A stretch of DNA of 64,000 nucleotides, taken from contig CAMSQA010000003.1 in the NCBI GenBank assembly GCA_947062475.1, forward strand, positions 31,990-95,989, in the 5' to 3' direction. Positions 4,223 through 27,662 of the stretch are shown here, piece after piece. The notes below the pieces were generated by a model. That model was not told where the DNA came from, searched no databases, and was given only the letters and a program-made list of their open reading frames with translations. The stretch comes from an uncultured Clostridia bacterium (GTDB lineage Bacteria; Bacillota; Clostridia; Christensenellales; UBA1242). Position numbers and translations under genes: made by a program. Within the stretch, counting starts at the first letter, position 1. Each line of letters starts with the position of its first letter.

Positions 4223-5842
4223 TTAAAGTGGAAGGTCTTTCTTTTTGAATTTAAAGATAGAAATTACAAAGCAAACTATTCCCACGGCAAGAAGGATTGC
4301 TCCCTTCCAGATAAAGGCAGTTGTTCCATGAAGGATTGACAGACAGTCAAACAGGGTGATGATTGAAAGATAATTGAAAAAGTCCATTGCACCCACTCTC
4401 ATCATGCTTGGCACTGTTGGAGAGCCAAATAAACCAAGTATAGTCGCTACAAAGAAAAACATTGAGAGACCGCCACCAATTGACATAGCAAGTTTGCTTC
4501 TATTAAACCAGCTGGAAGTCAGAAAGCATATTCCTGCAATTGCAAACATTGTTATGAAAGCGCCTAGATTTAGAAGTATCATTTGAGAGTAAGTGATTGA
4601 GATTGAACTTCCTGCAATTGCAAGACAAACAAGCCCCACAATCGTTGTGCAGAAAAACATTGCAAACAGTGAAAGGACAAGAAATGCCATTTGAGTGAAT
4701 GAAATTGTCGTTCTCTTTGTAGGCGTTGAAAGCACAAATGCCATTGACCCGCTGTCAACTTGGGAGGAAATGAGGTTGTTTGAAGCCATTATTATATAAA
4801 CTATTGGCAATAAAATACCAGCCATTTTGAAAAACATTGAGCCTATTACAAGTTCACTCATATTCATATTTCCAAGTTCTTGAAGAGAGGATGAAACATC
4901 AGCAGGGAGGCTGTCAAGCATGCTGCCAGATAGAGAATTTATGTAATTTAATTTTTCTTGTTGCACTCTCTCAAAAAGCAATGCTTCAATTTCAGCTTCA
5001 CTAAGCTCCGGATTTGACAATGTAAGTTCATTTTTGATTTCATTTGTTTTATAGTCGATTTGTGCTCTGTAAGATAATATGACTGATAAAGAGCTTTCGC
5101 CTATTTGAGCTTTGGAAAAATAATCGCTGACTCTTATAATTTGTCCTTGATTATCAAATTCTTGAGTGAAAAACACCTCTTTTAATACATTTGGAATATA
5201 GCCAGTGGCAAAGGTTGTTGGGTCTGCTGTCTGCCCAGAAGGAAGGGCAGATGAATAGCTTATGTAATCATTTACAGCCTGATGTATAAAAATTTTGGCA
5301 GAGTTTGCCATTTCTTCTCCACTTTCTTCCAAAAGCTTTTCATAGACAGTAATTTCAATCTGTCTAAGCACATATTCGTTGATAGAACTTTTATCATAGT
5401 TTTCACCCATGACACGATAATAATCAATAAAGGTAGAAACGCCAAGCTTTTGCTCGTTTGGAAGATTGGCAAGAATTGTATCTTTGGCCTCTTCTTCATC
5501 TTTGCCTTGCTCTAAGAGTGTGTTATAGAATGAAATGATTATCGTTTTTTGTTGAGATGAAAGAGCTTCATTTAAAAGCTGATCAAGAGAATTTGCATTG
5601 TCATCAAAGTTGACAAGTGCCTCATCTGTCAAATTAAAATAGGTAAGTGATTGTTTTTTAATGGATGCTTCCACAGAGTCTTTGACAAACATATCAACCA
5701 TGCTCTTGCTTACAGTGCCAACATTTAAGTTGCCAATCACAAGGATAAGCACTGCAAGAATAATGCAAGTGATAACTGTTACAAAGCTCCATAGACCAAG
5801 ATTTGCCTTGCAAGATTGTTTGAAAAGTGGCTTGCTAAACAT
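4223..5842 (-). CDS. ABC-2 type transporter permease with a large extracytoplasmic loop
   Basis: N-terminal TM, a soluble loop of about 300 aa, then about 5 C-terminal TM segments. Overlaps the upstream ATPase gene by 8 nt (operon). Confidence 0.7.
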   Translation of the reverse strand: MFSKPLFKQSCKANLGLWSFVTVITCIILAVLILVIGNLNVGTVSKSMVDMFVKDSVEASIKKQSLTYFNLTDEALVNFDDNANSLDQLLNEALSSQQKTIIISFYNTLLEQGKDEEEAKDTILANLPNEQKLGVSTFIDYYRVMGENYDKSSINEYVLRQIEITVYEKLLEESGEEMANSAKIFIHQAVNDYISYSSALPSGQTADPTTFATGYIPNVLKEVFFTQEFDNQGQIIRVSDYFSKAQIGESSLSVILSYRAQIDYKTNEIKNELTLSNPELSEAEIEALLFERVQQEKLNYINSLSGSMLDSLPADVSSSLQELGNMNMSELVIGSMFFKMAGILLPIVYIIMASNNLISSQVDSGSMAFVLSTPTKRTTISFTQMAFLVLSLFAMFFCTTIVGLVCLAIAGSSISITYSQMILLNLGAFITMFAIAGICFLTSSWFNRSKLAMSIGGGLSMFFFVATILGLFGSPTVPSMMRVGAMDFFNYLSIITLFDCLSILHGTTAFIWKGAILLAVGIVCFVISIFKFKKKDLPL

Positions 5843-6749
5843 GTTTTACCTCCTTTTGTTGTTTGTTGAGAAAATTTAAAAAGTGCCTTTCCAGATTATA
5901 TTTGATTTCAGAAATAAATTTGATGTTTTTGTTTGATATATATTTAAATAAATTTGAGATATCATCTCTTTCGATTTTGATTGTGACCTGATTATATTGT
6001 GGCTGTTTGCGTATGATTTCAAATTCGCTTTTGCAAAAGTCAAGATAGTCTTGCTCTGAATTAAATTCAATTTTGTATTCTCGCACCGATCTGTTTCTTA
6101 ATTTATCCATGTCTGTGATTTCAATAATATGACCTTTATCGATAAGAGCAACATAGTCACAAACTTTTTCAAGCTCTTCATAGAGGTGAGAGCTTATAAA
6201 AATGGTCTTTCCTTTTTGTTTTTCTTTTTCGATTAATTCTAGAAAAGCCACTCGCATAAGTGGGTCAAGTCCTGTTGTTGGCTCATCTAAAATCAAAATC
6301 TCAGCATCATAAGATAGGGCAGTGACTATTGCAGTTTTTTGTTTCATACCTTTGCTCATTCGTTTAAGATTGGCTGTGGGGTCAAGATGAAGTGTTTTTA
6401 AGAGTTCATTTAGATTATCAAACTCTTTATTCCCACGAAGCTCTGCCTGAGATTTTAAAAATGCTGTTCCACTTTTTAAATCTGGAAATCCAATTTCGCC
6501 AGGCACATAACCAACAAAAGCTTTGATTTTGTCAGATTGCGTCCAAGAGTCAAAGCCTTTGACATGCACCTTGCCTTTATCAGGTTTAATAAATCCAAGA
6601 ATTGCTCGAATAGTTGTTGTCTTTCCTGCTCCATTTGCACCAACAAAGCCAAGTGTAACCCCTTTTTTTATAGAAAAGTTTAAATCAAAAACGCCGCGAC
6701 CATTGCCATAATCTTTGGTGAGATTTTCAACGGTTATGACCTCTTCCAT
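5835..6749 (-). CDS. ABC transporter ATP-binding protein
   Basis: Walker A GANGAGKTT, signature MSKGMKQK, Walker B ILILDEPTTGLD. Confidence 0.9.
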   Translation of the reverse strand: MEEVITVENLTKDYGNGRGVFDLNFSIKKGVTLGFVGANGAGKTTTIRAILGFIKPDKGKVHVKGFDSWTQSDKIKAFVGYVPGEIGFPDLKSGTAFLKSQAELRGNKEFDNLNELLKTLHLDPTANLKRMSKGMKQKTAIVTALSYDAEILILDEPTTGLDPLMRVAFLELIEKEKQKGKTIFISSHLYEELEKVCDYVALIDKGHIIEITDMDKLRNRSVREYKIEFNSEQDYLDFCKSEFEIIRKQPQYNQVTIKIERDDISNLFKYISNKNIKFISEIKYNLERHFLNFLNKQQKEVKHV

Positions 6750-6761
6750 AACTTTTTCCTC

Positions 6762-7655
6762 CTATCTATAAAATTTCATAAAGTATTCTTCAAGACTCTC
6801 TTTATTATGACGAAAATCAGATATCTTTCTTTTTGAGAGTGCATTTACAAGCAGGTTTATGTTCTTGTCATTGATAGAGACAACAATTTCTGACTTTGTT
6901 TCTGACAAAATCTGCAACTTTTCAAGCTTGCTGATTGACAAACTGAACTTCTCTCTTTCTTGTTCGCTAACAAAAATTATAGAATAGACCTTTTCATTGT
7001 TGTGCGTTAGGCTTGAAGTGGCAAATTGACTGACAATTTTGCCCTCTTTGATGATTGCAATACGATCGCATGTTGCTTCGACTTCACTGAAAATATGACT
7101 TGAAAGAAGAATTGTTTTGCCCCTCTTTTTTTCTTGTTTGACAAATTCAATAAACTTTTGCTGCATTTCAAAATCAAGTCCGCTGGTCGGCTCATCTAAA
7201 ATCAATATATCTCCATCATTTAAAAATGCTGCCACGATTGCAAGTTTTCTTTTATCACCAAGACTCATTTTTTTTGTTTCGCCTTCAGGATTTAATTCAA
7301 AATATTCAAGAAGAAAGTTTAGACGCTTATCATCTTTTACGCCCTTAAGTTTTTTCATCATATCAATAAATTGCCAACCTGACAATCCGCTCGGCAATGC
7401 AATTTCACCAGGAAGGTATCCAACATTTGCCATAAACTTGTCAAAATGAGAAAAACTTTCAAGACCAAGAATTTTAGTTTCTCCACTGTCAGGATGGCTG
7501 AAGCCTAAAAGATGGCGGATTGTGGTTGATTTTCCTGCTCCATTTGGCCCTAAAAATCCAAAGACTTCGCCTTCGTCAATCTTAAAAGAAACATCAAAAA
7601 CGCCGCGACCATGTCCATAATCTTTTGTGAGGTTGTTTACTTCAATTTTTGCCAT
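6762..7655 (-). CDS. ABC transporter ATP-binding protein (second ATPase of the operon)
   Basis: Walker A GPNGAGKST, signature MSLGDKRK, Walker B ILILDEPTSGLD. GGAGG RBS. Confidence 0.9.
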   Translation of the reverse strand: MAKIEVNNLTKDYGHGRGVFDVSFKIDEGEVFGFLGPNGAGKSTTIRHLLGFSHPDSGETKILGLESFSHFDKFMANVGYLPGEIALPSGLSGWQFIDMMKKLKGVKDDKRLNFLLEYFELNPEGETKKMSLGDKRKLAIVAAFLNDGDILILDEPTSGLDFEMQQKFIEFVKQEKKRGKTILLSSHIFSEVEATCDRIAIIKEGKIVSQFATSSLTHNNEKVYSIIFVSEQEREKFSLSISKLEKLQILSETKSEIVVSINDKNINLLVNALSKRKISDFRHNKESLEEYFMKFYR

Positions 7656-7884: not shown

Positions 7885-8457
7885 ATGGAAAAAGAGGGAG
7901 ATTTGAGAATAAGAAGGACGAAGAAACTTTTGCTTGACTCGCTTATGCAACTTTTGCAAGAACATGCTTTTGAAAAAATTGGTGTCAACGATATATGTGA
8001 AAGAGCAATGGTGCATAGGGCAACATTTTATAATCATTTTGACGACAAATATGATTTGTTTAATTATGCTCTTTCCCAACTTGAAGATGAAATGTATTTA
8101 AGCACAATTGAAAAAGGAAGTTATACCTCCTCTGTGGAAATGTATTGCAGTATTTTGAGAAGTGTTTTTGATTTTATTGAGCAAAACAAATTAAAATTCA
8201 AACTTATAATAGATAATAATTCATCAAAATTGATATTTTTAATTTCGACAACAGTAAAAAGAAGTATAACTTATTTGATCAAACAAAATGAACTTAATCA
8301 AGAGTTTGTTGTGCCTCTTAATATCATAATTGACTTTTTTATGGGAGGAGTCACCTTTCTCTGCCTTGACTGGATTCAGTCAGATCTCTATTCTAAAGAA
8401 GAAATCATAAAATTTTTAGAGGTGTTTATTCAAAATGAAGAATTCTTAAAAAAATAG
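7885..8457 (+). CDS. TetR/AcrR family transcriptional regulator
   Basis: N-terminal HTH, RRTKKLLLDSLMQLLQEHAFEKIGVNDICERAMVHRATFYNHFDDKYDL. Divergent from the ABC operon. Confidence 0.85.
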   Translation: MEKEGDLRIRRTKKLLLDSLMQLLQEHAFEKIGVNDICERAMVHRATFYNHFDDKYDLFNYALSQLEDEMYLSTIEKGSYTSSVEMYCSILRSVFDFIEQNKLKFKLIIDNNSSKLIFLISTTVKRSITYLIKQNELNQEFVVPLNIIIDFFMGGVTFLCLDWIQSDLYSKEEIIKFLEVFIQNEEFLKK

Positions 8458-8468
8458 GCAACAACTGC

Positions 8469-8876
8469 CTATTTTTTATTATTAAAATCTTCATAATTAC
8501 ATTTCTTGATTGGGTGTGAAAGCAATTCCTCATCAAAATAGACCCTTTCAAGAAAATTAAAAGAAGAGACGCATCTTGAAGGATTGACGCCATGAAAGGA
8601 ACGAAAAGCTCGAGAGAAACCTTCACGTGTGTTGTAACCACATGCGATGGCTACATCAATAATACGATCATTTTTTATCATAAAAACTGCCTCACTTAGC
8701 CTTCTTTTTCTGATATAATCTTTTATGGTATAGCCAACAAAAAGTTCAAACACTGGGTTTGCAACCGAACTATTGAGTTCTAAAATTTGATATATCTTCT
8801 TATTGTCATGATCTTCAAACAAATTGTTTTCGATGTAGTCTATTGCAGAATTTAATCTTTTATAAATATTTATCAT
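8469..8876 (-). CDS. AraC family transcriptional regulator (small, MarA/SoxS-size)
   Basis: Double HTH: ELNSSVANPVFELFVGYTIKDYIRKRRLSEA...DVAIACGYNTREGFSRAFRSFHGVNPS. The start was trimmed to M24 (MINIYKRL). Confidence 0.8.
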   Translation of the reverse strand: MINIYKRLNSAIDYIENNLFEDHDNKKIYQILELNSSVANPVFELFVGYTIKDYIRKRRLSEAVFMIKNDRIIDVAIACGYNTREGFSRAFRSFHGVNPSRCVSSFNFLERVYFDEELLSHPIKKCNYEDFNNKK

Positions 8877-8989
8877 ATATTTTATTATAAGAAAAATAAA
8901 AACCTTGTCAAGAAAAAATGACATTTCTAAAATAAAAAAAGTCATTCAATTGCATTTTTGTTATGTTAAAATATATGCGAGGTAAAAAA

Positions 8990-9493
8990 ATGGAACAAAA
9001 ATTTCAATTTCATGGAAAAAGTTATGATTTCTCAGAGATGTGTATTGTTGTTGGCAAGGCTTTAGAAGAGAAGGTGAAAAGTTTCAAAGAGATGAAAGAA
9101 GTTCTTGTCAAATTGAAACAAGATTTAAGATTTTGCTCTATAAGCAAAGGATCTGATTCGCACGTTAAAGCGGTATTGAAAAAATATAATAGACTAATGG
9201 CACTTACTGATGAGCATGCAGTTGAGTCTATAAAAAAAATGAAAAAATGTTTATATACCGAAAATTATCCACTCATATTAGAGGGGATTGAAAAAGATTT
9301 AGACCGTCATAATGATATGCTTCTTACTCTTAACAGACATTTGCATAAATATATAATAGAAGTTGTTGACAAACGTATTGTTGAAGTGGCTTTAGAGCAT
9401 GACTTAATGATTATTGATATATCACTTAAAACTCTTGATATGCAAAAAGAATTTATCAGTGGCGAAGCTAAAGAATGTGAACATATAATGTAA
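8990..9493 (+). CDS. Hypothetical helical protein, paralog A
   Basis: GAGGT RBS + ATG 8990 (MEQKFQFHGKSYDF...). Paralogous to the 9589 gene, including its upstream region. Confidence 0.65.
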   Translation: MEQKFQFHGKSYDFSEMCIVVGKALEEKVKSFKEMKEVLVKLKQDLRFCSISKGSDSHVKAVLKKYNRLMALTDEHAVESIKKMKKCLYTENYPLILEGIEKDLDRHNDMLLTLNRHLHKYIIEVVDKRIVEVALEHDLMIIDISLKTLDMQKEFISGEAKECEHIM

Positions 9494-11127: not shown

Positions 11128-12477
11128 ATGAAGTCATGCGAGCAATATATCTATTGTAACAATCTCTTTGAAAGAGGTGATAAAATTGGAGTTGGGTGCA
11201 GTGGAGGAAGTGATTCTATTGCACTGCTTCATTTTTTGTCAAAAAATCAGGATAAATTTGGCATTGAAGTTTCAGTAATTCATGTGGATCACAGCATTCG
11301 AGAAAATAGTGGAAACGATTGTGAGTTTGTCAGAGATTTTGCTGAAAAACTTGGTCTGCGATTTCATAGTTTTAAAATTGATGTGCCAAAACTTGCAAAA
11401 GAGGATAAAAAAAGTCTCGAAACTGCTGCAAGAGAGGCAAGAGCAAAGGTTTTCAATGCTCTTGTTGAACGCGGAGTGGTAAATAAAATTGCTCTAGCTC
11501 ATCATAAAAATGATCAAGCAGAGACTATTCTTATGCATCTTTTCAGAGGTTCTGGTCTTGCTGGTGCAAGAGGAATGGAATCTGTCAGTGGATATTTTAT
11601 CAGACCTATGCTTGATACAGGTAAGGATGAAATTTTAAAGTATATTAAAAAAAATAAACTTAGATTTGTCGATGATTACACAAACGTAGACAATGTTTAC
11701 AATCGCAATTATGTGCGTAATGTGATTATGCCAAACATTCTTTCTCGCTGGCCAAATGCAATTGATTCTATCGTAAATTTTGGTAGATCGGCAAGTGAGG
11801 ATGATGAATTTATAAACAGTCAAATTTATCAAGATGCGGTGATATTTGAAAAGGCAGTTGCAAAAATACCTACGTCATATTTTGTCTATTCATCTTCAAT
11901 TGTGTCGAGAATAATTTTTAAAGCGATGAAGGGGCTGGGAGTGAACAAAGATATTGAAAGAAGGCATATCTCACTTATCAGTAAACTTGCACTAAATGGC
12001 GATAATGGAAACAAACTTAATTTGCCATTTGGATTTTGTGCTGTCAAAGAATATGATTATATCACCATTCATACAGGGCACGCCGCTCCAAAGAAGGATA
12101 AAGAATTTCAGCGAGCATTTAGGAGCGGCGAATTTAATTTGGCAGGTTTTGGCAGGGTGATTATCAAAAAAGTGAAGAAGGAAAATGTCTTTCAAAGTGA
12201 TGAAAACACTCTCTTCATTGATGGCGAGAAGTTGCCTAAAGGTGTAGTATGGCGTTTTAGACAAGAGGGTGATAAGTTTTGCAAGTTTGGCGGCGGAATG
12301 AAAAAATTAAAATGTTTTTTAATTGATAAAAAAGTGCCAGCAAGACTTAGAGATTTTATTCCTGTGCTTGCAAGTGAAGATGAGGTATTTGTCGTTGCTG
12401 GAATGGAAATTTCAGAAAAAATAAAGGTGACAGAAGATAGCAATAAAATTTATATGATAAAAGCTATACCTAGTTAA
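11128..12477 (+). CDS. tilS: tRNA(Ile)-lysidine synthase
   Basis: PP-loop GVGCSGGSDSIALLHFL, then IHVDHSIR and ALAHHKNDQAETILMHLFRGSGLAG. Length is typical for TilS. Confidence 0.92.
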   Translation: MKSCEQYIYCNNLFERGDKIGVGCSGGSDSIALLHFLSKNQDKFGIEVSVIHVDHSIRENSGNDCEFVRDFAEKLGLRFHSFKIDVPKLAKEDKKSLETAAREARAKVFNALVERGVVNKIALAHHKNDQAETILMHLFRGSGLAGARGMESVSGYFIRPMLDTGKDEILKYIKKNKLRFVDDYTNVDNVYNRNYVRNVIMPNILSRWPNAIDSIVNFGRSASEDDEFINSQIYQDAVIFEKAVAKIPTSYFVYSSSIVSRIIFKAMKGLGVNKDIERRHISLISKLALNGDNGNKLNLPFGFCAVKEYDYITIHTGHAAPKKDKEFQRAFRSGEFNLAGFGRVIIKKVKKENVFQSDENTLFIDGEKLPKGVVWRFRQEGDKFCKFGGGMKKLKCFLIDKKVPARLRDFIPVLASEDEVFVVAGMEISEKIKVTEDSNKIYMIKAIPS

Positions 12478-12582: not shown

Positions 12583-12601
12583 GTCTTATATATTGTATAA
12601 T
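12573..12601 (+). promoter_or_regulatory. Sigma-A promoter driving the large ncRNA
   Basis: TTGCAT (12573-12578), 17-nt spacer ending in TG, TATAAT (12596-12601). The predicted TSS at about 12608-12610 coincides with the 5' strand of the closing helix. Confidence 0.7.
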
Positions 12602-12609
12602 CTATTTAT

Positions 12610-13206
12610 AGAAGGTGCAGTATTCTAGTCAGAAAGTTGACTTAGGAAGGTGAAGTAATAGCACCGAAGGGCATATCTGTGAAGTTTCTGGTGCTGGCTT
12701 TGGTTGCCCAAACTGGGGCTGGTGCTGGAAGTTAAGAAATTTGGGCGAGCTGTAATGGCATACAGAAGCCGACCCATTTTTCGTGGAGACCTAGTTTAGG
12801 TGGATGTCAAATCATCTACTTTCTAGGAAGAACCTGCATTGCGATAAAAGTTGTGTGCAGTGTAGCCTGCTTTGAGTGAGTGGTAAGGGATATGGCGTAA
12901 ATGATATAGTTTGTAAAGCGCTTATCAAAGGATATCATTGTCATTGAAATTTCACTTGCAAAACAAGCTAATAAGTCTTCTGCCTGTCAAGGAAAACTTC
13001 TAGACTGTTGCTTATGCAGATACATTGAGGATTATAGTGCGACCTAAGTGGCGATTCGGTGTTATGTCTTGCTTAAAAGGAAACTGCTTAATCGGTGACG
13101 ATGAGTGCGAGAATGGGAAATCCGACCGAACCTATGGCGCAAGGTTTACTCAGTAGATTGCCTTCTAAAAAGGGGAAAGGATAATAAGTCGCTTCCTCTT
13201 TTTTTA
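12610..13206 (+). ncRNA. Large (~560-nt core, ~600 nt with terminator) highly structured ncRNA; OLE/ROOL size class, family unresolved
   Basis: It has its own promoter and terminator (stem 13171-13199 + T7), no credible ORF, and visibly higher G+C than the flanks. Closing helix 12610-12617:13159-13166. Nested hairpin CCTAG/CTAGG (12790-94:12823-27) with GTGGATG/CATCTAC (12800-06:12813-19). Perfect 8-bp AATGATAT/ATATCATT (12900-07:12932-39). CTGTA/TACAG (12750-54:12761-65). GNRA hairpin ATCG-GTGA-CGAT (13091-13102). Long-range TTCGGT/ACCGAA (13055-60:13125-30). Confidence 0.75.
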
Positions 13207-13346
13207 AACTTTTTGGCAGTTTTTTATTCATTTTTTATTGATTTTTATATGTTATATTTAAATTTATTTTTTTATTTTTTGTCTTTGATAAAATCTTATC
13301 TTTAAATTTGAGATTTCTTAATATTTTAAATATTTTAAATTAGACC

Positions 13347-13373
13347 TTGACAATTCCCCCCCCCATGTATAAT
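13347..13373 (+). promoter_or_regulatory. Promoter with a C9 homopolymer in the spacer (phase-variation candidate)
   Basis: TTGACA (13347-13352), 15-nt spacer ATT-C9-ATG, TATAAT (13368-13373). Homologous to the promoter at 27156-27182. Confidence 0.6.
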
Positions 13374-13401
13374 AGAGGTATGGATATAATGGAGGTGAAA
13401 A

Positions 13402-14409
13402 ATGGGAAGAATAAGAGATTGGTTTGAAGAAGAAAATGGATTTTGTAAAATGGTATTTGGCGGAATTGCATCGGTCGTATTTGCAGGTGTTTTTACTTTT
13501 GTTTCTTGTGTTACCAATGGTATTGTTTCAACTAAATATTTAAGCAAAACAAAAAAAGATTTAGAAGAAAAAAGGGTTGTTTTGCAAGAAAATATTGCAA
13601 GTTATGTGAAAGATATCAATGATTTTGAGCTTGCATCTGTAGAACTTCTTCACAACAATGAAAATTATATTTGCAAAGCTTTTGGTAGGACTGGAATAAA
13701 ATCAGTGCTGGGACTTGAAGAAGATAAATATGTCAACATTTTTTTCAATATTTCACAAGATAAAGCTCAAACAATTTTGGATAAAATCGAAGCCTTTGAT
13801 AAGACAGGGCGAATGAAGAAAAATGATAGCCCAGAAAATTCTTTAGTAATTAAAGGCGGAATAAAATGTATAGATTTATCAGTAAAAGGTAAATTGAAAA
13901 AGTCAGTTGATGCTTGCATGCAGGTGTTTGATGCTATAGACAATGCTGTCAAGAATGCTTATGAATATAAAATTGAAGAAATTGCAAATTCAAAACAGTT
14001 TAATGAAAAATTGGCAAAAGATTATAGATATGTAAAAAATGAAATTTCAACAAGAGTCGATGGTCTCTTCGTCCATTCAAAATTTGTAAATAGTGGAATT
14101 ATGACAACAGGAATTTCAAGCGTAGCGAGAAATGAAGAAACAAATGAGAGCTATTTTTATGTTGACACACTTCAAGCAATCGCAAATGGAAAGCCTGGTG
14201 AAAAATTTGATAAATTCAAACTTGAGACCTGCAGAACAATGGTTGTTGTAGATGGTGCAAACCTTACAGATGAAGAGGTTTATGCAAAGTTTATCAGAGG
14301 TGAGCATAAGGAATTTCTTGAGCTTGTCAGAAATACAAATAGTGAAAAAGTAGGTATTTTTAATGGCAAAGTTGAAGAAGATGTTGAAGAAATCGAATTT
14401 TTGTTTTAA
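13402..14409 (+). CDS. Hypothetical membrane-anchored or possible lipoprotein
   Basis: GGAGGTG RBS. N-terminal hydrophobic segment MVFGGIASVVFAGVFTFVSC with a lipobox-like FVSC. The rest is soluble, with no family recognised. Confidence 0.6.
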   Translation: MGRIRDWFEEENGFCKMVFGGIASVVFAGVFTFVSCVTNGIVSTKYLSKTKKDLEEKRVVLQENIASYVKDINDFELASVELLHNNENYICKAFGRTGIKSVLGLEEDKYVNIFFNISQDKAQTILDKIEAFDKTGRMKKNDSPENSLVIKGGIKCIDLSVKGKLKKSVDACMQVFDAIDNAVKNAYEYKIEEIANSKQFNEKLAKDYRYVKNEISTRVDGLFVHSKFVNSGIMTTGISSVARNEETNESYFYVDTLQAIANGKPGEKFDKFKLETCRTMVVVDGANLTDEEVYAKFIRGEHKEFLELVRNTNSEKVGIFNGKVEEDVEEIEFLF

Positions 14410-14441: not shown

Positions 14442-14471
14442 AAAAAAACGTGGAAAAATCCATGTTTTTTT
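14442..14471 (+). terminator. Rho-independent terminator
   Basis: AACGTGGA (14447-14454) pairs with TCCATGTT (14459-14466), flanked by an A-run and a T-run. Confidence 0.7.
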
Positions 14472-14687: not shown

Positions 14688-16481
14688 ATGGAAAGCAAAA
14701 AGGCAAAGAAGGCAAAACCGTCAAAATTTGCTATTTGGTGGAAATGGCCTCTTATTGTGCTTGCATTGTCATTTTCGTTGTCGCTTGCATTTGGTGTGCT
14801 AAGTCAAGTTGCCCTCACAGGAGCTGGTATTGCGATAAGTGTGGCTGTCATTTTGATTTTTATTGCAATCTCAATTGTGGCTGACATGGTCGGGGTTGCA
14901 ATTACGGCAACAAGTTTTGAGCCCTTTCGAGCAATGGCGTCAAGAAAGATAAGAGGGGCAAAGGAAGCAATCAAACTTATTCATAATAAAGAAAAAGTTG
15001 CAAGTGTTTCTGCCGATGTTATTGGCGATATATGTGGAATTTTGTCAGGTGCAGCAGGGGCGTCAATTACCGTTGTTTTTATTGTGAATTATGCTGGCAC
15101 ATTTTGGGAAGTGCTTATTGCATCAATGGTTTCTGCTGTGATTGCCGCACTCACTATATTTGGCAAGGCATATTGCAAAAAATATTCAATTGTCCACTCT
15201 GAGAAAATCATCTTAATTCTTGGCAAGTTTATAAGCCTTTTTCATATTCAGAGGAAAGGCAAAGAGGTAGGCGATAAAAAGAAGAAGGACGACAAAAATT
15301 TACAGCTTGAAAAGAGTGAGATAGGAAATAATATTAAGCTTATTAAACCAGATTTTGAAAACAATATTATAAATGTTTCAGCTTCTTTAGCAAAATTTCT
15401 TAATTGTGGAAATAAAAATGCAACTTTAAAAATACTTGACGAGAAATTTAAGAAAAATTATAAAAATATTATTTTTATAGTCTTTGATGGAATGGGGAAA
15501 AATCCTATTGAAGTCAACTTGGGCGAAGATACTCTTTTGAGGAAAAGTATTGTAAAAGAACTCACTTCGGTTTTCCCTGCAACCACGACAAATGCTGCTA
15601 CAACTTTGCTTACAAACAGTTTTCCACTTGAGCATGGCGTGTTTGATTGGTCGATTAATTTTGAAGAAATTGGTAAAAATGTTGATGTTTATCTTTCATC
15701 AGATTCTCAAACGGGTGAAAAAATCAATTGTAAATTTTTAGAAAACAGGTTGCCAGTTGTCCCTTTTTACAAGGATGCAAAAACCGATTATAAGATAAGC
15801 AATGTTGTCCCTTCCTATTGGCATGATGGAATAGAAAAAAATAGGCATGAATGTTTTGACCTTAAACAATATTTTCAAGAAATAAAACAAATTTGTGAAG
15901 ATGAAGGCAAACAGTTTGTCTATTGCTATTGCCCAGAACCTGATGCGACCATGCATAAATATGGTGTTTCATCAAAAGAGGCAAAAACTCTTTTAAATGA
16001 TATCAACAAAGAAATTGAAAATTTGGTTGAAAGTTGTAAAGATACACTTTTTGTCATAATTGCCGATCATGGTCAGATTGATGTTGAAGGCTATATTGAA
16101 ATATATAAAAATAAAAAACTTTACTCTCTTTTAAGTTGCCCTCCATATTTAGAGTCTAGAGCAACTGCATTCAAGGTGAAAAAGGGGAAAGAAAAGCAAT
16201 TTGAAAAACTTTTCATAAAAAATTATGGTGAAGATTTTGACCTTCACGCAAGTGCAAAGCTTATTGAGGATGGTTATTTTGGTGACCCAGCAACTCAGAA
16301 ACATAGAAAACTTTTGGGTGATTTTGTGGCAATATGCAAAAATCATAAACAACTTGTTTTGTCAAAAGATTCAAATAGATTTAAAGGTCATCATTGCTCA
16401 CTTACAGAAGAAATGATTGTGCCACTTATAATTATTGAAAAAAGTAATTTCACGTCAAGTATTGACATTCAGACACTTTAA
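14688..16481 (+). CDS. Membrane-anchored alkaline phosphatase / nucleotide pyrophosphatase superfamily protein
   Basis: N-terminal multi-TM domain of about 190 aa. The C-terminal domain has FIVFDGMG...TSVFPATTTNAATTLLT...EHGV and IIADHGQ, matching metal- and nucleophile-site motifs of the type I phosphodiesterase / AP family. Confidence 0.65.
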   Translation: MESKKAKKAKPSKFAIWWKWPLIVLALSFSLSLAFGVLSQVALTGAGIAISVAVILIFIAISIVADMVGVAITATSFEPFRAMASRKIRGAKEAIKLIHNKEKVASVSADVIGDICGILSGAAGASITVVFIVNYAGTFWEVLIASMVSAVIAALTIFGKAYCKKYSIVHSEKIILILGKFISLFHIQRKGKEVGDKKKKDDKNLQLEKSEIGNNIKLIKPDFENNIINVSASLAKFLNCGNKNATLKILDEKFKKNYKNIIFIVFDGMGKNPIEVNLGEDTLLRKSIVKELTSVFPATTTNAATTLLTNSFPLEHGVFDWSINFEEIGKNVDVYLSSDSQTGEKINCKFLENRLPVVPFYKDAKTDYKISNVVPSYWHDGIEKNRHECFDLKQYFQEIKQICEDEGKQFVYCYCPEPDATMHKYGVSSKEAKTLLNDINKEIENLVESCKDTLFVIIADHGQIDVEGYIEIYKNKKLYSLLSCPPYLESRATAFKVKKGKEKQFEKLFIKNYGEDFDLHASAKLIEDGYFGDPATQKHRKLLGDFVAICKNHKQLVLSKDSNRFKGHHCSLTEEMIVPLIIIEKSNFTSSIDIQTL

Positions 16482-16511: not shown

Positions 16512-17411
16512 ATGAAGAAGAAAGATATTCAAGCAAAAATAGAAAAGTCAATATACTACTCTACAATGATATTTCATGATTTAAAAATGAATATTGAAAG
16601 ACAGGAAATAATAAAAGAAATTAAAGAAGAACAAAAAAAGAGTGAAATAATAAACTATTTTTTAAAGACAGAAGCTAAAAAGTTGCTTGAAAAGAATGAA
16701 AGATATAATAATGCTTACAAAGAGTTTCATCTTCTATGCAAGGCATATGGCATAAATAGAAGTGACTCGAAGAGTAGCCAAGAATATTTTGAAAACTATG
16801 TTTTCGCAACTGGTGGTAGATGGATTGACGACAAAGATTTGTTTTCTAATAATTTCTGGAATGGTTCAAATTCAATAAGTGCTAATATGGTTCGCAATTT
16901 TGCAGAAAGAGCTTATTATGCTGATAAGAGAGTCGCTGAATGGGAAATAAAAAAGGCAGAAATAGAAGCAATGCTTTCTAACACCAGCAAGGATAAAACA
17001 AAAGCGAAGCTGAAGAAAAAAATTAGTCAGGGCGAAGAAAAAATCAAAGACGATATAGAAATTGCTATGGCAAGAAGAGAGGCCATTAAACATTTTAATG
17101 AAGATAGATTATGTTTCCATAATGCTATTTTTCGTATGAGAGAATTAGAAGAGAATGCTGTTGCAGATGTAATCAAAGCCAATTTCAATAATCCAATTAT
17201 CGAAGATTTAAAAAATGATAGAACAAAATTTAACAGTGGAAGATTTCATCAATATGGAAAAGATATTATCAAAAAGATGCCTGAGAAATTATCTTCAGAA
17301 AATATTGAAAACAATGAATTTGACCCCAAAGTTTATTTGGAAGAACTTATAAATAAAGTAAACAATGAAAATACTAAAACCAATGAATCAGATGAAGAAA
17401 TAGAAATGTAA
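16512..17411 (+). CDS. Hypothetical protein (charged, helical)
   Basis: GGAGAG RBS. Long ORF with no family recognised. Confidence 0.5.
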   Translation: MKKKDIQAKIEKSIYYSTMIFHDLKMNIERQEIIKEIKEEQKKSEIINYFLKTEAKKLLEKNERYNNAYKEFHLLCKAYGINRSDSKSSQEYFENYVFATGGRWIDDKDLFSNNFWNGSNSISANMVRNFAERAYYADKRVAEWEIKKAEIEAMLSNTSKDKTKAKLKKKISQGEEKIKDDIEIAMARREAIKHFNEDRLCFHNAIFRMRELEENAVADVIKANFNNPIIEDLKNDRTKFNSGRFHQYGKDIIKKMPEKLSSENIENNEFDPKVYLEELINKVNNENTKTNESDEEIEM

Positions 17412-19711: not shown

Positions 19712-22045
19712 TTGGATGGAGGAGAAGTGCAAACTCAAGAAGATAGACTCGAATATTTTGCGCAAAGAATTATCAATAAGGCAACAGCAGATGAAATTAA
19801 CGAGGATTTAATGGTATTGACGCTTACAAAGGCGCAGCTGATTGACCCAATGCTATTGTCATGTCTCAAAAACAAGGTATTTGACAAGGAATTTGCTGGC
19901 AAAAAAATCAAATTCAAATGTGCAGATGGCGATCTCTTCTTTAAAGCTGGCGAGTTTGAGACTTTGGTTGAAAACTATAAGGCAATAGAAGAGTATAAAG
20001 CCTCTCTTGTCTTTGAAGAGACAATAAATCTTGGCACTGGCTCTTTTCACAATAATGAAGAGCAATTGATTGCCATGTTTAAAAAGCAGGATAAAGTTGA
20101 AAGGTCCTTTGAAGATATTGTGCAGATAAACAAAAAGCTTGCTGATATAGCAGAAAAAATCAATGGCGGCTATGTCGACGAAGATGGAAATAAAAAAGAA
20201 CTTTCGCCACTTGAAAAATATTTTGTATGTTATCAAATTGCAAGAAGCATTTCTTATTTGGTTGAAAATGAAGAAGATAGAAAAAAGGCTGGATATAGCT
20301 TTACGCGAAGCGTAGTTGACTTGATAAAAAATCAAATTGGATGTTGTGTGGGAATTTCAGAATATTTTCGTGCGATACTTGAAATGGTGGGAATAAACAA
20401 TTGTTGTTTAAGTGTTGACTCAGATAGAGAGGGTCTGCTTTATAAGCAAAATTTAAATGAGAATATCGCAGAGTTATTCAGTTTTAAAAAGCTTTTTAAT
20501 AATTATACAAATAGGGAAAGCAATATATTAGAAGAACTTGATAAATTAAATAACTTTCAATATGTTACTTCACACAAATCAAATTTGGTCTATTTAAAAG
20601 ATGAGAAATATGGCATTGATGGTGTTTTTTTGGGAGATGCAACTTTTGGTGACAAATACGATATTGTTGCAATAGGTGATAATTTTGACATACTCTTTAA
20701 TTTTGCGACTTTCTTTCAGTCAGGAGATGATATATCAAATTTATTAGATAAAGCAAGCAAGCTTGATCTGCTTGAAAAGAATGAGAACAGTTTGGATAAA
20801 GATTATTATTTTAATTATGCAAAAAGTTTATTGGTTCAAAGTTTTAAAGCTGCGTTTTATAGCAATACTTTATTATCGCCTCGTTTGTCACTTGATCAAG
20901 CAAGGTTTGTATTAAAGCTTGAAGGCTGCAAAAGTTATGATGAGGTTTTTGATCTGATTGAAGAGAAATGTTCTGAAAAAGACATGACAACAGGACAACC
21001 AAACGAATACGCCGCTGCTTATTTACAAAGCTTTGAAAAGGTGCTGTATGATCAAGACCAAAAATTCTTAAAATCAACAGAAATCAAAAAAATATATGAA
21101 AAACTTGAAAATACAAAATTTATAAAGAAAGTTTCTCAAGAGATAAGCACCGCGTCAAAGGTAAGCCATAAAATCTTTGACCAAATTTTTGAGGGAAGTG
21201 AATATGCTTTTATGAATGGTATAAAAAATATGACGGAGACAAATGATTTTCTCAAAAATGCCTCACCAGATTTAAAAGGAAGTAAAAATATAGTTTTGGA
21301 AATTGTTCAAAAAAATGGGCTTGAACTTGAATTTGCTTCAAAAAATTTGCTAGATGATTATGATGTGGTGTTGGCAGCGGTGAGCCAAAATGCTGAGGCG
21401 CTCAAATTCGCCTCAGAAAGATTGAAAAACAAATATGAACTAGTTTTGAAAGCTGTTCAAGGAAATGGTGAAGCGCTTAAGTTTGCATCAGAAGAAATGA
21501 GGAATAATATTGAAATTGCTTTGACTGCTATAAGAAGTGATTGTTCAGCCCTTCTATATGTGCCAATAGATGGCCGTAATTACAATGAAATCGTGCTTGA
21601 AGCTGTCGATATGGACGGGCTTGCTTTAGAGTTTGCATCAAAAGAAATGCAAGATGATTTATTGGTGGTTATGACAGCTATTCAAAATGACAGGGAGGCG
21701 TTGAAGTTTGCCTCGCCAAGATTTCAAAATAACAGAGTGCTTCAAGAAGGGAAATTTGAAGTTTTGGAAGACATGATTTCTTGTTATGACAGTGTCAAAA
21801 ATATCCAAGATTTTCCACTAAGTTATTTTCAAGAGGAAAATAGATATATCCTTGATTTTGCAATGGAAATCATTGCGGAAAGACTTGAAGATTCAGTCAT
21901 TAAAGAGGAATATTATGAAATGATTGAAGAAATAATTAATTCAAAACTTGACGATCTTGCAAGTTTGGAAGAGATGAAAAAACTAAAAGACGAAATGCAT
22001 TTCTTAGATTTTGAACAGGATTTTGAGCTGGATGACGATGAATAG
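19712..22045 (+). CDS. Large protein: possible transglutaminase-like Cys-His-Asp core + DUF4116 repeats
   Basis: Central repeats NGLELEFASKNLLDDYDVVLAAVSQNAEALKFASERLKNKYELVLKAVQGNGEALKFASEEMRNN... fit the DUF4116 pattern. Upstream, GCCVGISEYFRAILEMVGI ... SHKSNLVYL ... GDATFG is weakly transglutaminase-like. TTG start uncertain. Confidence 0.6.
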   Translation: MDGGEVQTQEDRLEYFAQRIINKATADEINEDLMVLTLTKAQLIDPMLLSCLKNKVFDKEFAGKKIKFKCADGDLFFKAGEFETLVENYKAIEEYKASLVFEETINLGTGSFHNNEEQLIAMFKKQDKVERSFEDIVQINKKLADIAEKINGGYVDEDGNKKELSPLEKYFVCYQIARSISYLVENEEDRKKAGYSFTRSVVDLIKNQIGCCVGISEYFRAILEMVGINNCCLSVDSDREGLLYKQNLNENIAELFSFKKLFNNYTNRESNILEELDKLNNFQYVTSHKSNLVYLKDEKYGIDGVFLGDATFGDKYDIVAIGDNFDILFNFATFFQSGDDISNLLDKASKLDLLEKNENSLDKDYYFNYAKSLLVQSFKAAFYSNTLLSPRLSLDQARFVLKLEGCKSYDEVFDLIEEKCSEKDMTTGQPNEYAAAYLQSFEKVLYDQDQKFLKSTEIKKIYEKLENTKFIKKVSQEISTASKVSHKIFDQIFEGSEYAFMNGIKNMTETNDFLKNASPDLKGSKNIVLEIVQKNGLELEFASKNLLDDYDVVLAAVSQNAEALKFASERLKNKYELVLKAVQGNGEALKFASEEMRNNIEIALTAIRSDCSALLYVPIDGRNYNEIVLEAVDMDGLALEFASKEMQDDLLVVMTAIQNDREALKFASPRFQNNRVLQEGKFEVLEDMISCYDSVKNIQDFPLSYFQEENRYILDFAMEIIAERLEDSVIKEEYYEMIEEIINSKLDDLASLEEMKKLKDEMHFLDFEQDFELDDDE

Positions 22046-27155: not shown

Positions 27156-27182
27156 TTGACAAAATTCGGGGGGGGGTAGAAT
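27156..27182 (+). promoter_or_regulatory. Promoter with a G9 homopolymer in the spacer (phase-variation candidate)
   Basis: TTGACA (27156-27161), 15-nt spacer AAATTC-G9, TAGAAT (27177-27182). The flanks are homologous to the 13347-13373 promoter. Confidence 0.6.
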
Positions 27183-27233: not shown

Positions 27234-27662
27234 ATGACTAAGAAAAATACATTATCAAATAAAATCACTATTTCTATTCTTGTTCTTTTATTGTCAATCG
27301 TCACTTTATTGATGGCATCGTGCGGAGGCACTAAAGATCCAAAACCTTTCAAAGACATCATAAATGATTCGATAAATCAAAGGGTTGTTGTTTTAAATGC
27401 CAGTGTCTCGGCTGAGGAAGCCCCTCAGGCAGGTGGATTTTGGACTTCTGTTGATTATAATAATGAAGATGACTATAAGGCTTATAATATGTATTATGAC
27501 AAAACAGGAAAACTTATCTCTTATATCACATATGAAAATTCTAGATTACAAGGTAATGATTCATGGGTGGGAATTGACACAGCTTTATCAATAGAAGAAT
27601 TCCACAAAAATTCAAAGATTTTTTGGAATTTCATTCTTGAAACATATTCAAGAAACCGTTGA
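27234..27662 (+). CDS. Lipoprotein (possibly disrupted at its 3' end)
   Basis: Signal peptide with lipobox LLMASC. AAGGGGAAG RBS. Protein-like sequence continues in another frame up to 27816 (see the next feature). Confidence 0.6.
   Translation: MTKKNTLSNKITISILVLLLSIVTLLMASCGGTKDPKPFKDIINDSINQRVVVLNASVSAEEAPQAGGFWTSVDYNNEDDYKAYNMYYDKTGKLISYITYENSRLQGNDSWVGIDTALSIEEFHKNSKIFWNFILETYSRNR

Follow-up and report, generated by a model that had tools for sequence, protein, structure and literature searches.

A C9 tract in the −35/−10 spacer of an orphan-gene promoter as a probable length switch in low-GC gut Clostridia

A run of nine cytosines separates −35 and −10 boxes that are both perfect, upstream of an orphan gene in the DNA analysed here, a stretch of 64,000 nucleotides from an uncultured Clostridia bacterium (the window), and by analogy with characterised systems we consider that it probably works as a hypermutable switch of spacer length. 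In the mechanism that we propose, replication slippage would add or remove single C's in the spacer of this sigma-A-type promoter, changing the distance between TTGACA and TATAAT. Nine C's give a spacer of 15 nt, and since this is 2 bp under the 17-nt optimum, low transcription would be expected at the modal length, with C10 (16 nt) and C11 (17 nt) giving progressively stronger transcription. This direction of change, and the dependence of promoter strength on a spacer of 15, 16 or 17 nt, would follow what is seen in E. coli, Neisseria and Mycoplasma systems. If slippage is as frequent and as reversible as we suppose, each cell lineage would carry a heritable but reversible expression level of the gene starting at 13402 (gene 13402). 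The putative lipoprotein gene starting at 27234 (gene 27234) would be switched separately, in like manner, by a second promoter at 27156 that has a G9 tract, and the presence of the same cassette before many lineage-specific genes in relatives would yield a collection of loci that each switch on their own.

For a handful of pathogens, switching by a homopolymer in a promoter spacer is textbook material. No such switch was reported for gut Clostridia in the literature that we searched, nor did we find there a description of these lineages or of this cassette. Most likely we are dealing with a known kind of switch in bacteria where it had not been described before.

Two tract promoters in the window

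The features of the two promoters and of the genes that follow them, all on the forward strand, are these:

13347–13352, +, −35 hexamer TTGACA, perfect consensus (read in the sequence; kept in 23 of 24 C-type family members)
13353–13355, +, 5' spacer flank ATT (ATT or TTT in most family members)
13356–13364, +, C9 homopolymer, the proposed hypermutable spacer element (orthologous and paralogous tracts in relatives are C8, C9 or C10)
13365–13367, +, 3' spacer flank ATG (G at −13 in 23 of the 24 aligned C-type members)
13368–13373, +, −10 hexamer TATAAT, perfect consensus, 15-nt spacer to the −35 box (read in the sequence)
13391–13395, +, Shine-Dalgarno sequence GGAGG, 6 nt 5' of the ATG at 13402 (read in the sequence)
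13402–14409, +, gene for a 335-aa orphan protein with one N-terminal transmembrane helix at about residues 18–36
27156–27161, +, −35 hexamer TTGACA of the G-type tract promoter (read in the sequence)
27162–27167, +, AAATTC, the 5' part of the G9-promoter spacer (read in the sequence)
27168–27176, +, G9 homopolymer flush with the −10 box, 15-nt spacer (the same architecture occurs in the related locus L012)
27177–27182, +, −10 hexamer TAGAAT, five of six matches (read in the sequence)
27234–27662, +, gene for a 142-aa putative lipoprotein, an orphan, with a signal peptide ending LLMAS-C (a lipobox-like LLMASC)

An earlier sequence-only reading had described the promoter as TTGACA-ATT-C9-ATG-TATAAT at 13347–13373 with a 15-nt spacer, and direct reading bore this out. 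The repeat between the two boxes is uninterrupted in both promoters, which lie 28 nt (C9) and 51 nt (G9) from their respective start codons, and the lone exception to the G at −13 among the C-type members, at position 1630 of contig L009, has a T. The two promoters of the window share the −35 box, the length of the spacer and an AATAGAG after the −10 box, but differ in that the G9 promoter carries the complementary base and its tract abuts the −10 box. The G9 site had been called a homologous promoter; its position and its 15-nt spacer are real, but the resemblance is better called analogy than demonstrated homology.

Both tracts are rare far beyond chance. The window has a G+C content of 31%, and the C9 and the G9 are its only C or G runs of at least 6 in the full 64 kb, both inside consensus promoter spacers. 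From base composition about 0.0007 C runs and about 0.013 G runs of at least 9 are expected, against about 1.9 runs of exactly 6. Moreover, 100 dinucleotide-preserving shuffles gave a mean of 0.53 matches to C9 with at most one mismatch, compared with 6 overlapping matches observed, all of which fall at the C9 and G9 sites.

Several other readings of these sites were considered and rejected. A second TATAAT at 13385–13390 directly abuts the Shine-Dalgarno sequence and has CCCATG, with no −35-like hexamer, 16–18 nt upstream, and was therefore not accepted as the true −10 box. An extended −10 element at the C9 promoter fails since its TG is at −14/−13 instead of −15/−14. A G-quadruplex or i-motif was discarded because a single run is unable to fold intramolecularly, and an antisense promoter at the G9 because the minus strand has neither TTGACA nor TATAAT in register. 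Upstream of the C9 promoter there is also a weak promoter-like TTGAGA-17-TATTTT at 13308–13336.

The cassette in related genomes and its preference for nine

In total about 30 promoters of the form TTGAC(A/T)-N3-C9-NNG-TATAAT or N6-G9-TA(G/A)AAT were found in low-GC gut metagenome-assembled genomes (MAGs). Most carriers are Clostridia related to the window that share its OLE (ornate large extremophilic) RNA, and some are Mucispirillum-labelled contigs with lpxK; the labels of the carriers are mostly Clostridia or Eubacteriales. A scan of one genome per species, with a pattern that tolerated C6 to C15, contributed 17 further copies in low-GC MAGs, including seven C-type copies in MGBC127298, and a metagenome scan added four more. 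The same search of viral contigs gave 0 matches, arguing that the cassette is not phage-borne. Matches from high-GC genomes, in which C6 is followed by other bases and spacers are 16–18 nt (class B), were set aside as ordinary promoters and kept as a contrast.

Two architectures recur: a C-type, in which C9 is flanked by three nucleotides on each side, and a G-type, in which six nucleotides precede a G9 flush with the −10 box (27156 in the window, and L012). In further variants the tract is placed differently (8+9+2, 4+9+3 and 2+9+3), and its length is still nine. Other common features are an A-rich stretch, usually with a C, before the −35 box, and the sequence nrAGnTA after the −10 box; the leaders are short and their Shine-Dalgarno sequences strong. 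In L001, L002 and L011, homologues of the 335-aa protein have TTGACT-TTT-C9-AAG-TATAAT upstream, and the promoter of the homologue in L052 is also C9. In L003, L004, L005 and L010, TTGACA-ATT-Cn-ATG-TATAAT precedes two of three tandem paralogues which, like the window gene, sit between OLE RNA (94% identical) and an OapA-like gene. The uninterrupted tract is thus conserved across species, before homologues that are only 40–66% identical, which argues that it is maintained by selection.

With a tract of modal length, the spacer of the cassette falls 2 bp below the optimum of the organisms that carry it. Ordinary TTGACA/TATAAT pairs without a tract, with 0–1 mismatch in the same DNA, have their spacer peak at 17 nt, in agreement with the optimum that the sequence-only reading had assumed: 5 of the 11 perfect pairs are spaced by 17 nt, as are 25 of the one-mismatch pairs, versus a background of about 6–12. 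Tract promoters with perfect hexamers have instead spacers of 14 (n = 3), 15 (n = 17), 16 (n = 2) and 19 nt (n = 1).

In 218 kb of low-GC related DNA there are 23 G or C runs of length 5, none of length 6 or 7, two of length 8, 30 of length 9 and one of length 10. All but one of the 33 runs of at least 8 lie between TTGAC and TAnAAT, the remaining one being intragenic. About 90% of tracts are exactly nine long, and so are those that the search pattern had played no part in selecting (the window G9, L009b, L012b, L016b and L032b).

These numbers bear on the idea that the promoter is constitutively usable, adequately active at 15 nt, and merely contains a slippery tract, which descent, or gene conversion between copies of the promoter, would have preserved and which would be no more than a weak rheostat. 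In E. coli promoter studies a suboptimal spacer is better tolerated by consensus promoters, and here both hexamers are perfect, the −35 box follows an A-tract that looks like a proximal UP element, and all downstream ORFs are intact. However, an unselected tract decays by substitution, and the bimodal distribution, with runs of 6–7 absent and runs of 9 confined to promoters, indicates that something actively keeps long tracts in place. The tract is moreover maintained before homologues that are only 40% identical, and we regard an incidental tract as very unlikely.

Why nine should be preferred may be explained by mutation. The polyG/C tracts of Campylobacter jejuni have a modal length of nine because G8 and G9 mostly gain a unit and G10 and G11 mostly lose one, that is, an insertion bias at G8/G9 and a deletion bias at G10/G11 (PMC3401435). 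The stationary distribution that we computed from the C. jejuni rates (PMC3401435) is 6% for length 7, 15% for 8, 49% for 9, 28% for 10 and 3% for 11. Length-10 tracts are far fewer than independent draws from C. jejuni-like rates predict (P ~3e-4). An assembly consensus reports the majority allele, which at a C. jejuni-like equilibrium would nearly always be nine, and the observed mode fits such a mutational attractor seen through assembly consensus. The length distribution being too narrow otherwise, hypermutability needs this argument, or selection. The argument predicts a sizeable minority of cells with C10 or C11, and tract variation would be hidden in assemblies, since these report the mode.

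What most qualifies the switch is how tightly the tracts cluster at nine, and this keeps alive a second explanation, namely that promoters whose 15-nt spacer holds exactly nine C:G pairs form a class apart. A factor of its own, such as a tract-binding activator or an accessory protein of RNAP, would recognise such a fixed element, or else the element would be tuned to DNA supercoiling; the driven genes would then form a conventional co-regulated regulon, and length variants would be deleterious or neutral slips. It would account for the exact nine found in about 90% of tracts across species and two phyla, for the conservation of the ATT and NNG flanks, the nrAGnTA and the A-rich stretch, for interrupted variants that retain the 15-nt spacer, for a non-tract spacer total of 6 nt in C-type and G-type promoters alike, and for the many driven genes whose products look cytoplasmic. 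The conservation of the spacer flanks, even between Clostridia and Mucispirillum-labelled MAGs, counts directly against the switch, as a pure length device has no need of it.

A fixed element is nevertheless doubtful. Nine is kept even where changed flanks bring the spacer to 14, 16 or 19 nt, so that the attractor is the length of the tract and the spacer is not the constant. The position of the tract relative to the −10 box and its strand (C or G in the sense direction) also vary, which would be intolerable for a positioned binding site and is easier to reconcile with a length device. Near-identical assemblies differ by indels at the tracts only, and no candidate factor was identified. Finally, the same clade has a G9 inside a coding region: in a related MAG, the G9 of L023 (4471–4479) directly follows, in frame, the part of an ORF (4364–7270) that encodes the signal peptide of a 968-aa repeat-rich secreted protein. 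This is the classical layout of an intragenic switch, making the gene a candidate for translational phase variation, and it shows that C9/G9 is not merely a promoter-recognition motif in the clade.

The same contig carries, at minus-strand coordinate 4915, the sequence TTGACAATT-AAACTA-ATGTATAAT-ATAAT, which resembles the cassette with its C-tract replaced. An overlapping TATAAT gives this site an ordinary 17-nt spacer, and judging by its sequence it may be a locked-ON fossil of the switch.

A length switch has several precedents with which the cassette can be compared. In Mycoplasma hyorhinis, a low-GC Firmicute relative, a polyA tract between the −35 and −10 boxes of the vlp genes sets the spacer length, and a conserved promoter cassette is repeated before several independently switching surface lipoprotein genes. 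The cassette described here shares the homopolymer in the −35/−10 spacer and the repetition, but vlp has about 17–20 A's before paralogues in one cluster, whereas here nine C's or G's precede mostly unrelated, dispersed genes. In Bordetella pertussis fim2 and fim3, a promoter polyC of about 13–15 C changes the spacing needed for transcription by separating the BvgA activator site from the −10 box; a polyC run is common to both, but no activator site is evident here. In Neisseria meningitidis porA and opc, the number of units in a core-promoter homopolymer sets high, intermediate or low expression, and in fetA a promoter-located polyC tract likewise sets the expression level (PMC13293289). As in these three genes, the tracts reported here are polyG or polyC in a core promoter, have lengths within 8–14, and belong each to its own gene. 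In contrast to the Neisseria systems, which come from Gram-negative pathogens and have a broad length distribution, ours are found in uncultured low-GC gut Clostridia and Mucispirillum-labelled MAGs, have perfect hexamers and a mode 2 bp short of the optimum, and stand as one cassette before many unrelated genes. C. jejuni is also an AT-rich gut coloniser whose G/C runs of at least 7 are confined to a few dozen loci, with the same modal length of nine, generated there by length-dependent insertion and deletion bias (PMC3401435). Its tracts are, however, about 80% intragenic and switch genes ON and OFF by frameshift, while 32 of 33 lie in promoter spacers here.

Tract length in near-identical assemblies

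The sequence-only reading had invoked slipped-strand gain or loss of C's, to be contradicted by an invariant tract length across strains; we found that two orthologous promoters vary in a close relative. L003, L004 and L005 encode an identical protein with 100%-identical flanks, and their two poly-C tracts read C8/C9/C9 and C9/C9/C10, respectively. A three-way alignment of these assemblies has 5355 columns, 24 of them variable, and its only two indel columns are the two poly-C tracts. None of the 14 A/T runs of at least 7 in this alignment, including two T9 runs, varies, and L003 and L005 do not differ by a single substitution. The chance that two random indels would both hit the tracts is about 1e-5. 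The polymorphism is therefore specific to the tracts, which supports the slipped-strand spacer switch proposed by the sequence-only reading. In L005 the C10 tract falls within a predicted gene of 430 aa, but this call was rejected as an extension by the gene caller and is not evidence of a coding tract.

These differences come from assemblies, and homopolymer consensus error is a formal possibility. If all were sequencing or assembly errors, there would be no length variation in vivo. The evidence of variation is all from short-read metagenome assemblies, some at 3–5x coverage, and L003 and L005, having no substitutions between them, may derive from the same or closely related samples. Against this, the tracts occur at the same places in MAGs of many independent studies, so that the tracts themselves are real; the only two indels in 5.3 kb coincide with them, while T9 and A8 runs never differ; and a whole-base error at two tracts in contigs of 16–141 kb is improbable unless the reads were mixed, which is the biological claim itself. 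We therefore consider it extremely unlikely that the differences are an artefact.

Six promoters are represented by more than one assembly: the tract differs in length in two of them, is interrupted by a substitution at unchanged length in another two, and is the same in the last two; that four of them show no length change counts against the switch. One of the identical cases is the P0001 promoter, which is C9 in all three assemblies. The interrupted cases are L048, where the C9 of L028 is replaced by C8A, and L053, a 99.5%-identical contig that has GGAGGGGGG (GGAG6) at the position of the window G9, each with the 15-nt spacer kept. Both variants were assembled at low coverage (3–5x for L048 and L053, with L053 at 3x in a contig that ends in adapter sequence), and they could mean that 15 nt is itself the selected state.

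For the window's own species the comparison consisted of three short ENA contigs, L006 (C9), L053 (GGAG6) and L054 (no promoter). The length differences were seen in a relative, and the C9 of the window is also C9 in L006, the sole other contig that covers it. In five of eight loci represented by whole short contigs (L014, L043, L047, L052 and L006) the cassette lies at most 70 nt from a contig end, which may reflect a heterogeneous tract in the reads, a drop in coverage, or the 27-nt cassette acting as a genomic repeat.

Should heterogeneity be confirmed at the level of reads, roughly ten or more promoters per genome would switch independently. The switch, if real, would mark lineage-specific orphan proteins as being under fluctuating selection (from host immunity, phage or niche), and TTGACA-N3-C9-N3-TATAAT would be a simple signature for finding such genes in metagenomes.

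Driven genes, their carriers and the OLE RNA locus

The driven genes comprise the anchored family of gene 13402, lipoprotein-like products (gene 27234 of the window, two in L009 and one in L026), a small membrane protein (L012) and, without export signals, DUF4116-repeat proteins, an ankyrin protein and several orphans. Promoter of a surface protein, the description given to the C9 site by the sequence-only reading, therefore may fit gene 13402 but is too narrow for the family, as about 12 of 22 driven genes (DUF4116, ankyrin, orphans) have no signal peptide. This proportion is atypical for classical contingency loci and is a further point against the switch. What the downstream genes have in common is that they are orphans or fast-diverging: the L028 and L048 loci, for example, are 99% identical upstream of the promoter versus 84% in the driven 98-aa gene.

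Many C9-driven proteins (13402–14409 in the window; L010, L011, L016 and L032) have an acidic C-terminus of the form E-E-[IM]-E-hydrophobic, examples among the C9-driven proteins being EEIEFLF, EEIELY, EIEEMEW, EIAEMEW, DEIKL and NDFEM. On sequence grounds this motif may be a shared sorting or secretion tag. The window protein at 16512–17411, which has no tract promoter, ends in DEEIEM. There is also, at 19712–22045 (+), a 777-aa protein with DUF4116 repeats of the same family as those in the C9-driven genes of L008 and L040, and no G/C tract upstream.

Among the carriers, L009 stands apart. This Mucispirillum-labelled MAG contig has two C9 promoters, at 28–54 and 1630–1660 (spacers of 15 and 19 nt), before two paralogous lipoproteins. 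Also on it are genes for LpxK (187 bits, cut-off 92) and for a protein resembling LPS heptosyltransferases, from which we conclude that its source is a diderm. A subclass of the cassette, 'GTG' (L009, L014, L026 and, probably, both L043 and L047), may thus belong to a second phylum. In that event the two phyla would seem to have converged on one design, drawn there by a mutational attractor at nine that they have in common.

A broader interpretation, which we judge unlikely, is that the C9/G9-spacer promoter is a distinct cross-phylum design of low-GC gut bacteria that would keep a large set of genes independently and stochastically dimmed, with nine perhaps enforced beyond mutational bias. 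The promoter is seen in the OLE RNA Clostridia and in the LPS-bearing Mucispirillum-labelled MAGs; the non-exported repeat proteins (DUF4116, ankyrin) with the acidic C-terminal tag might be secreted effectors; and nine might be enforced by a factor or by a structural property that reads the tract.

Neither the 335-aa nor the 142-aa protein matched a family in Pfam and NCBIfam searches, and exact-protein look-ups for both, for TilS, BipA and P0007 returned nothing on record. The only matches of the 142-aa protein are an identical 142-aa sequence and an 80-aa fragment that is identical over 56% of the query. For the 335-aa protein, six homologues were found among 5.8 billion proteins. It has an alpha/beta C-terminal domain, ending in the acidic EEIEFLF listed above; an AlphaFold model from five sequences was mediocre to moderate (pLDDT 67.7, pTM 0.69), and a Foldseek search of this model against the PDB gave no match with E <0.05. 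Its single N-terminal transmembrane helix agrees with the N-terminal anchoring proposed earlier, and the product of gene 13402 is, as predicted from its sequence, a single-pass, N-terminally anchored orphan. The N-terminal flank of the helix is the more basic one in most homologues, which suggests an N-in/C-out anchored extracytoplasmic domain for the family, the window protein itself being ambiguous. The earlier suggestion that the protein is possibly lipidated is unsupported, since Cys36 (FVSC) is conserved in none of four homologues; its n-region is acidic.

The window is chromosomal, with tilS, bipA, dnaB and a class I (Glu/Gln-type) tRNA synthetase gene. An OLE RNA (RF01071, 388 bits), which marks the organism as a Clostridia-type Firmicute, lies directly upstream of the C9 promoter, and gene 13402 stands alone between it and the gene for an OapA-like membrane protein. 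A hairpin followed by a T-run is visible by eye at about 14448–14471, 3' of gene 13402, where a terminator scan did not call a terminator. One other contig, L006 (ENA ERZ13692150), matches window positions 13288–13572 with 100% identity through the promoter and the first 57 codons, past which it has an unrelated ORF and then frr. At 3x coverage, L006 is probably a chimeric assembly; it could alternatively be a recombinant allele with a different C-terminal domain.

The OLE RNA locus comprises 12596–13180 (+), the RNA itself, together with 11128–12477 and 14688–16481. Adjacency of ole and oapA is usual, and in the window the C9-driven gene 13402 comes between them. In the relative L003, three tandem paralogues of gene 13402 lie between ole and the OapA-like gene. 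Either the 13402 family could consist of OLE-associated proteins specific to the lineage, or the locus could be a hotspot of insertion. The OapA-like protein of the window (14688–16481, +, 597 aa), so called by position only, is a fusion of an N-terminal multi-TM domain, for which L003 has a separate 239-aa protein (8310–9029) with 91% identity, and a type I phosphodiesterase/alkaline-phosphatase-like domain (PF01663, 1e-20).
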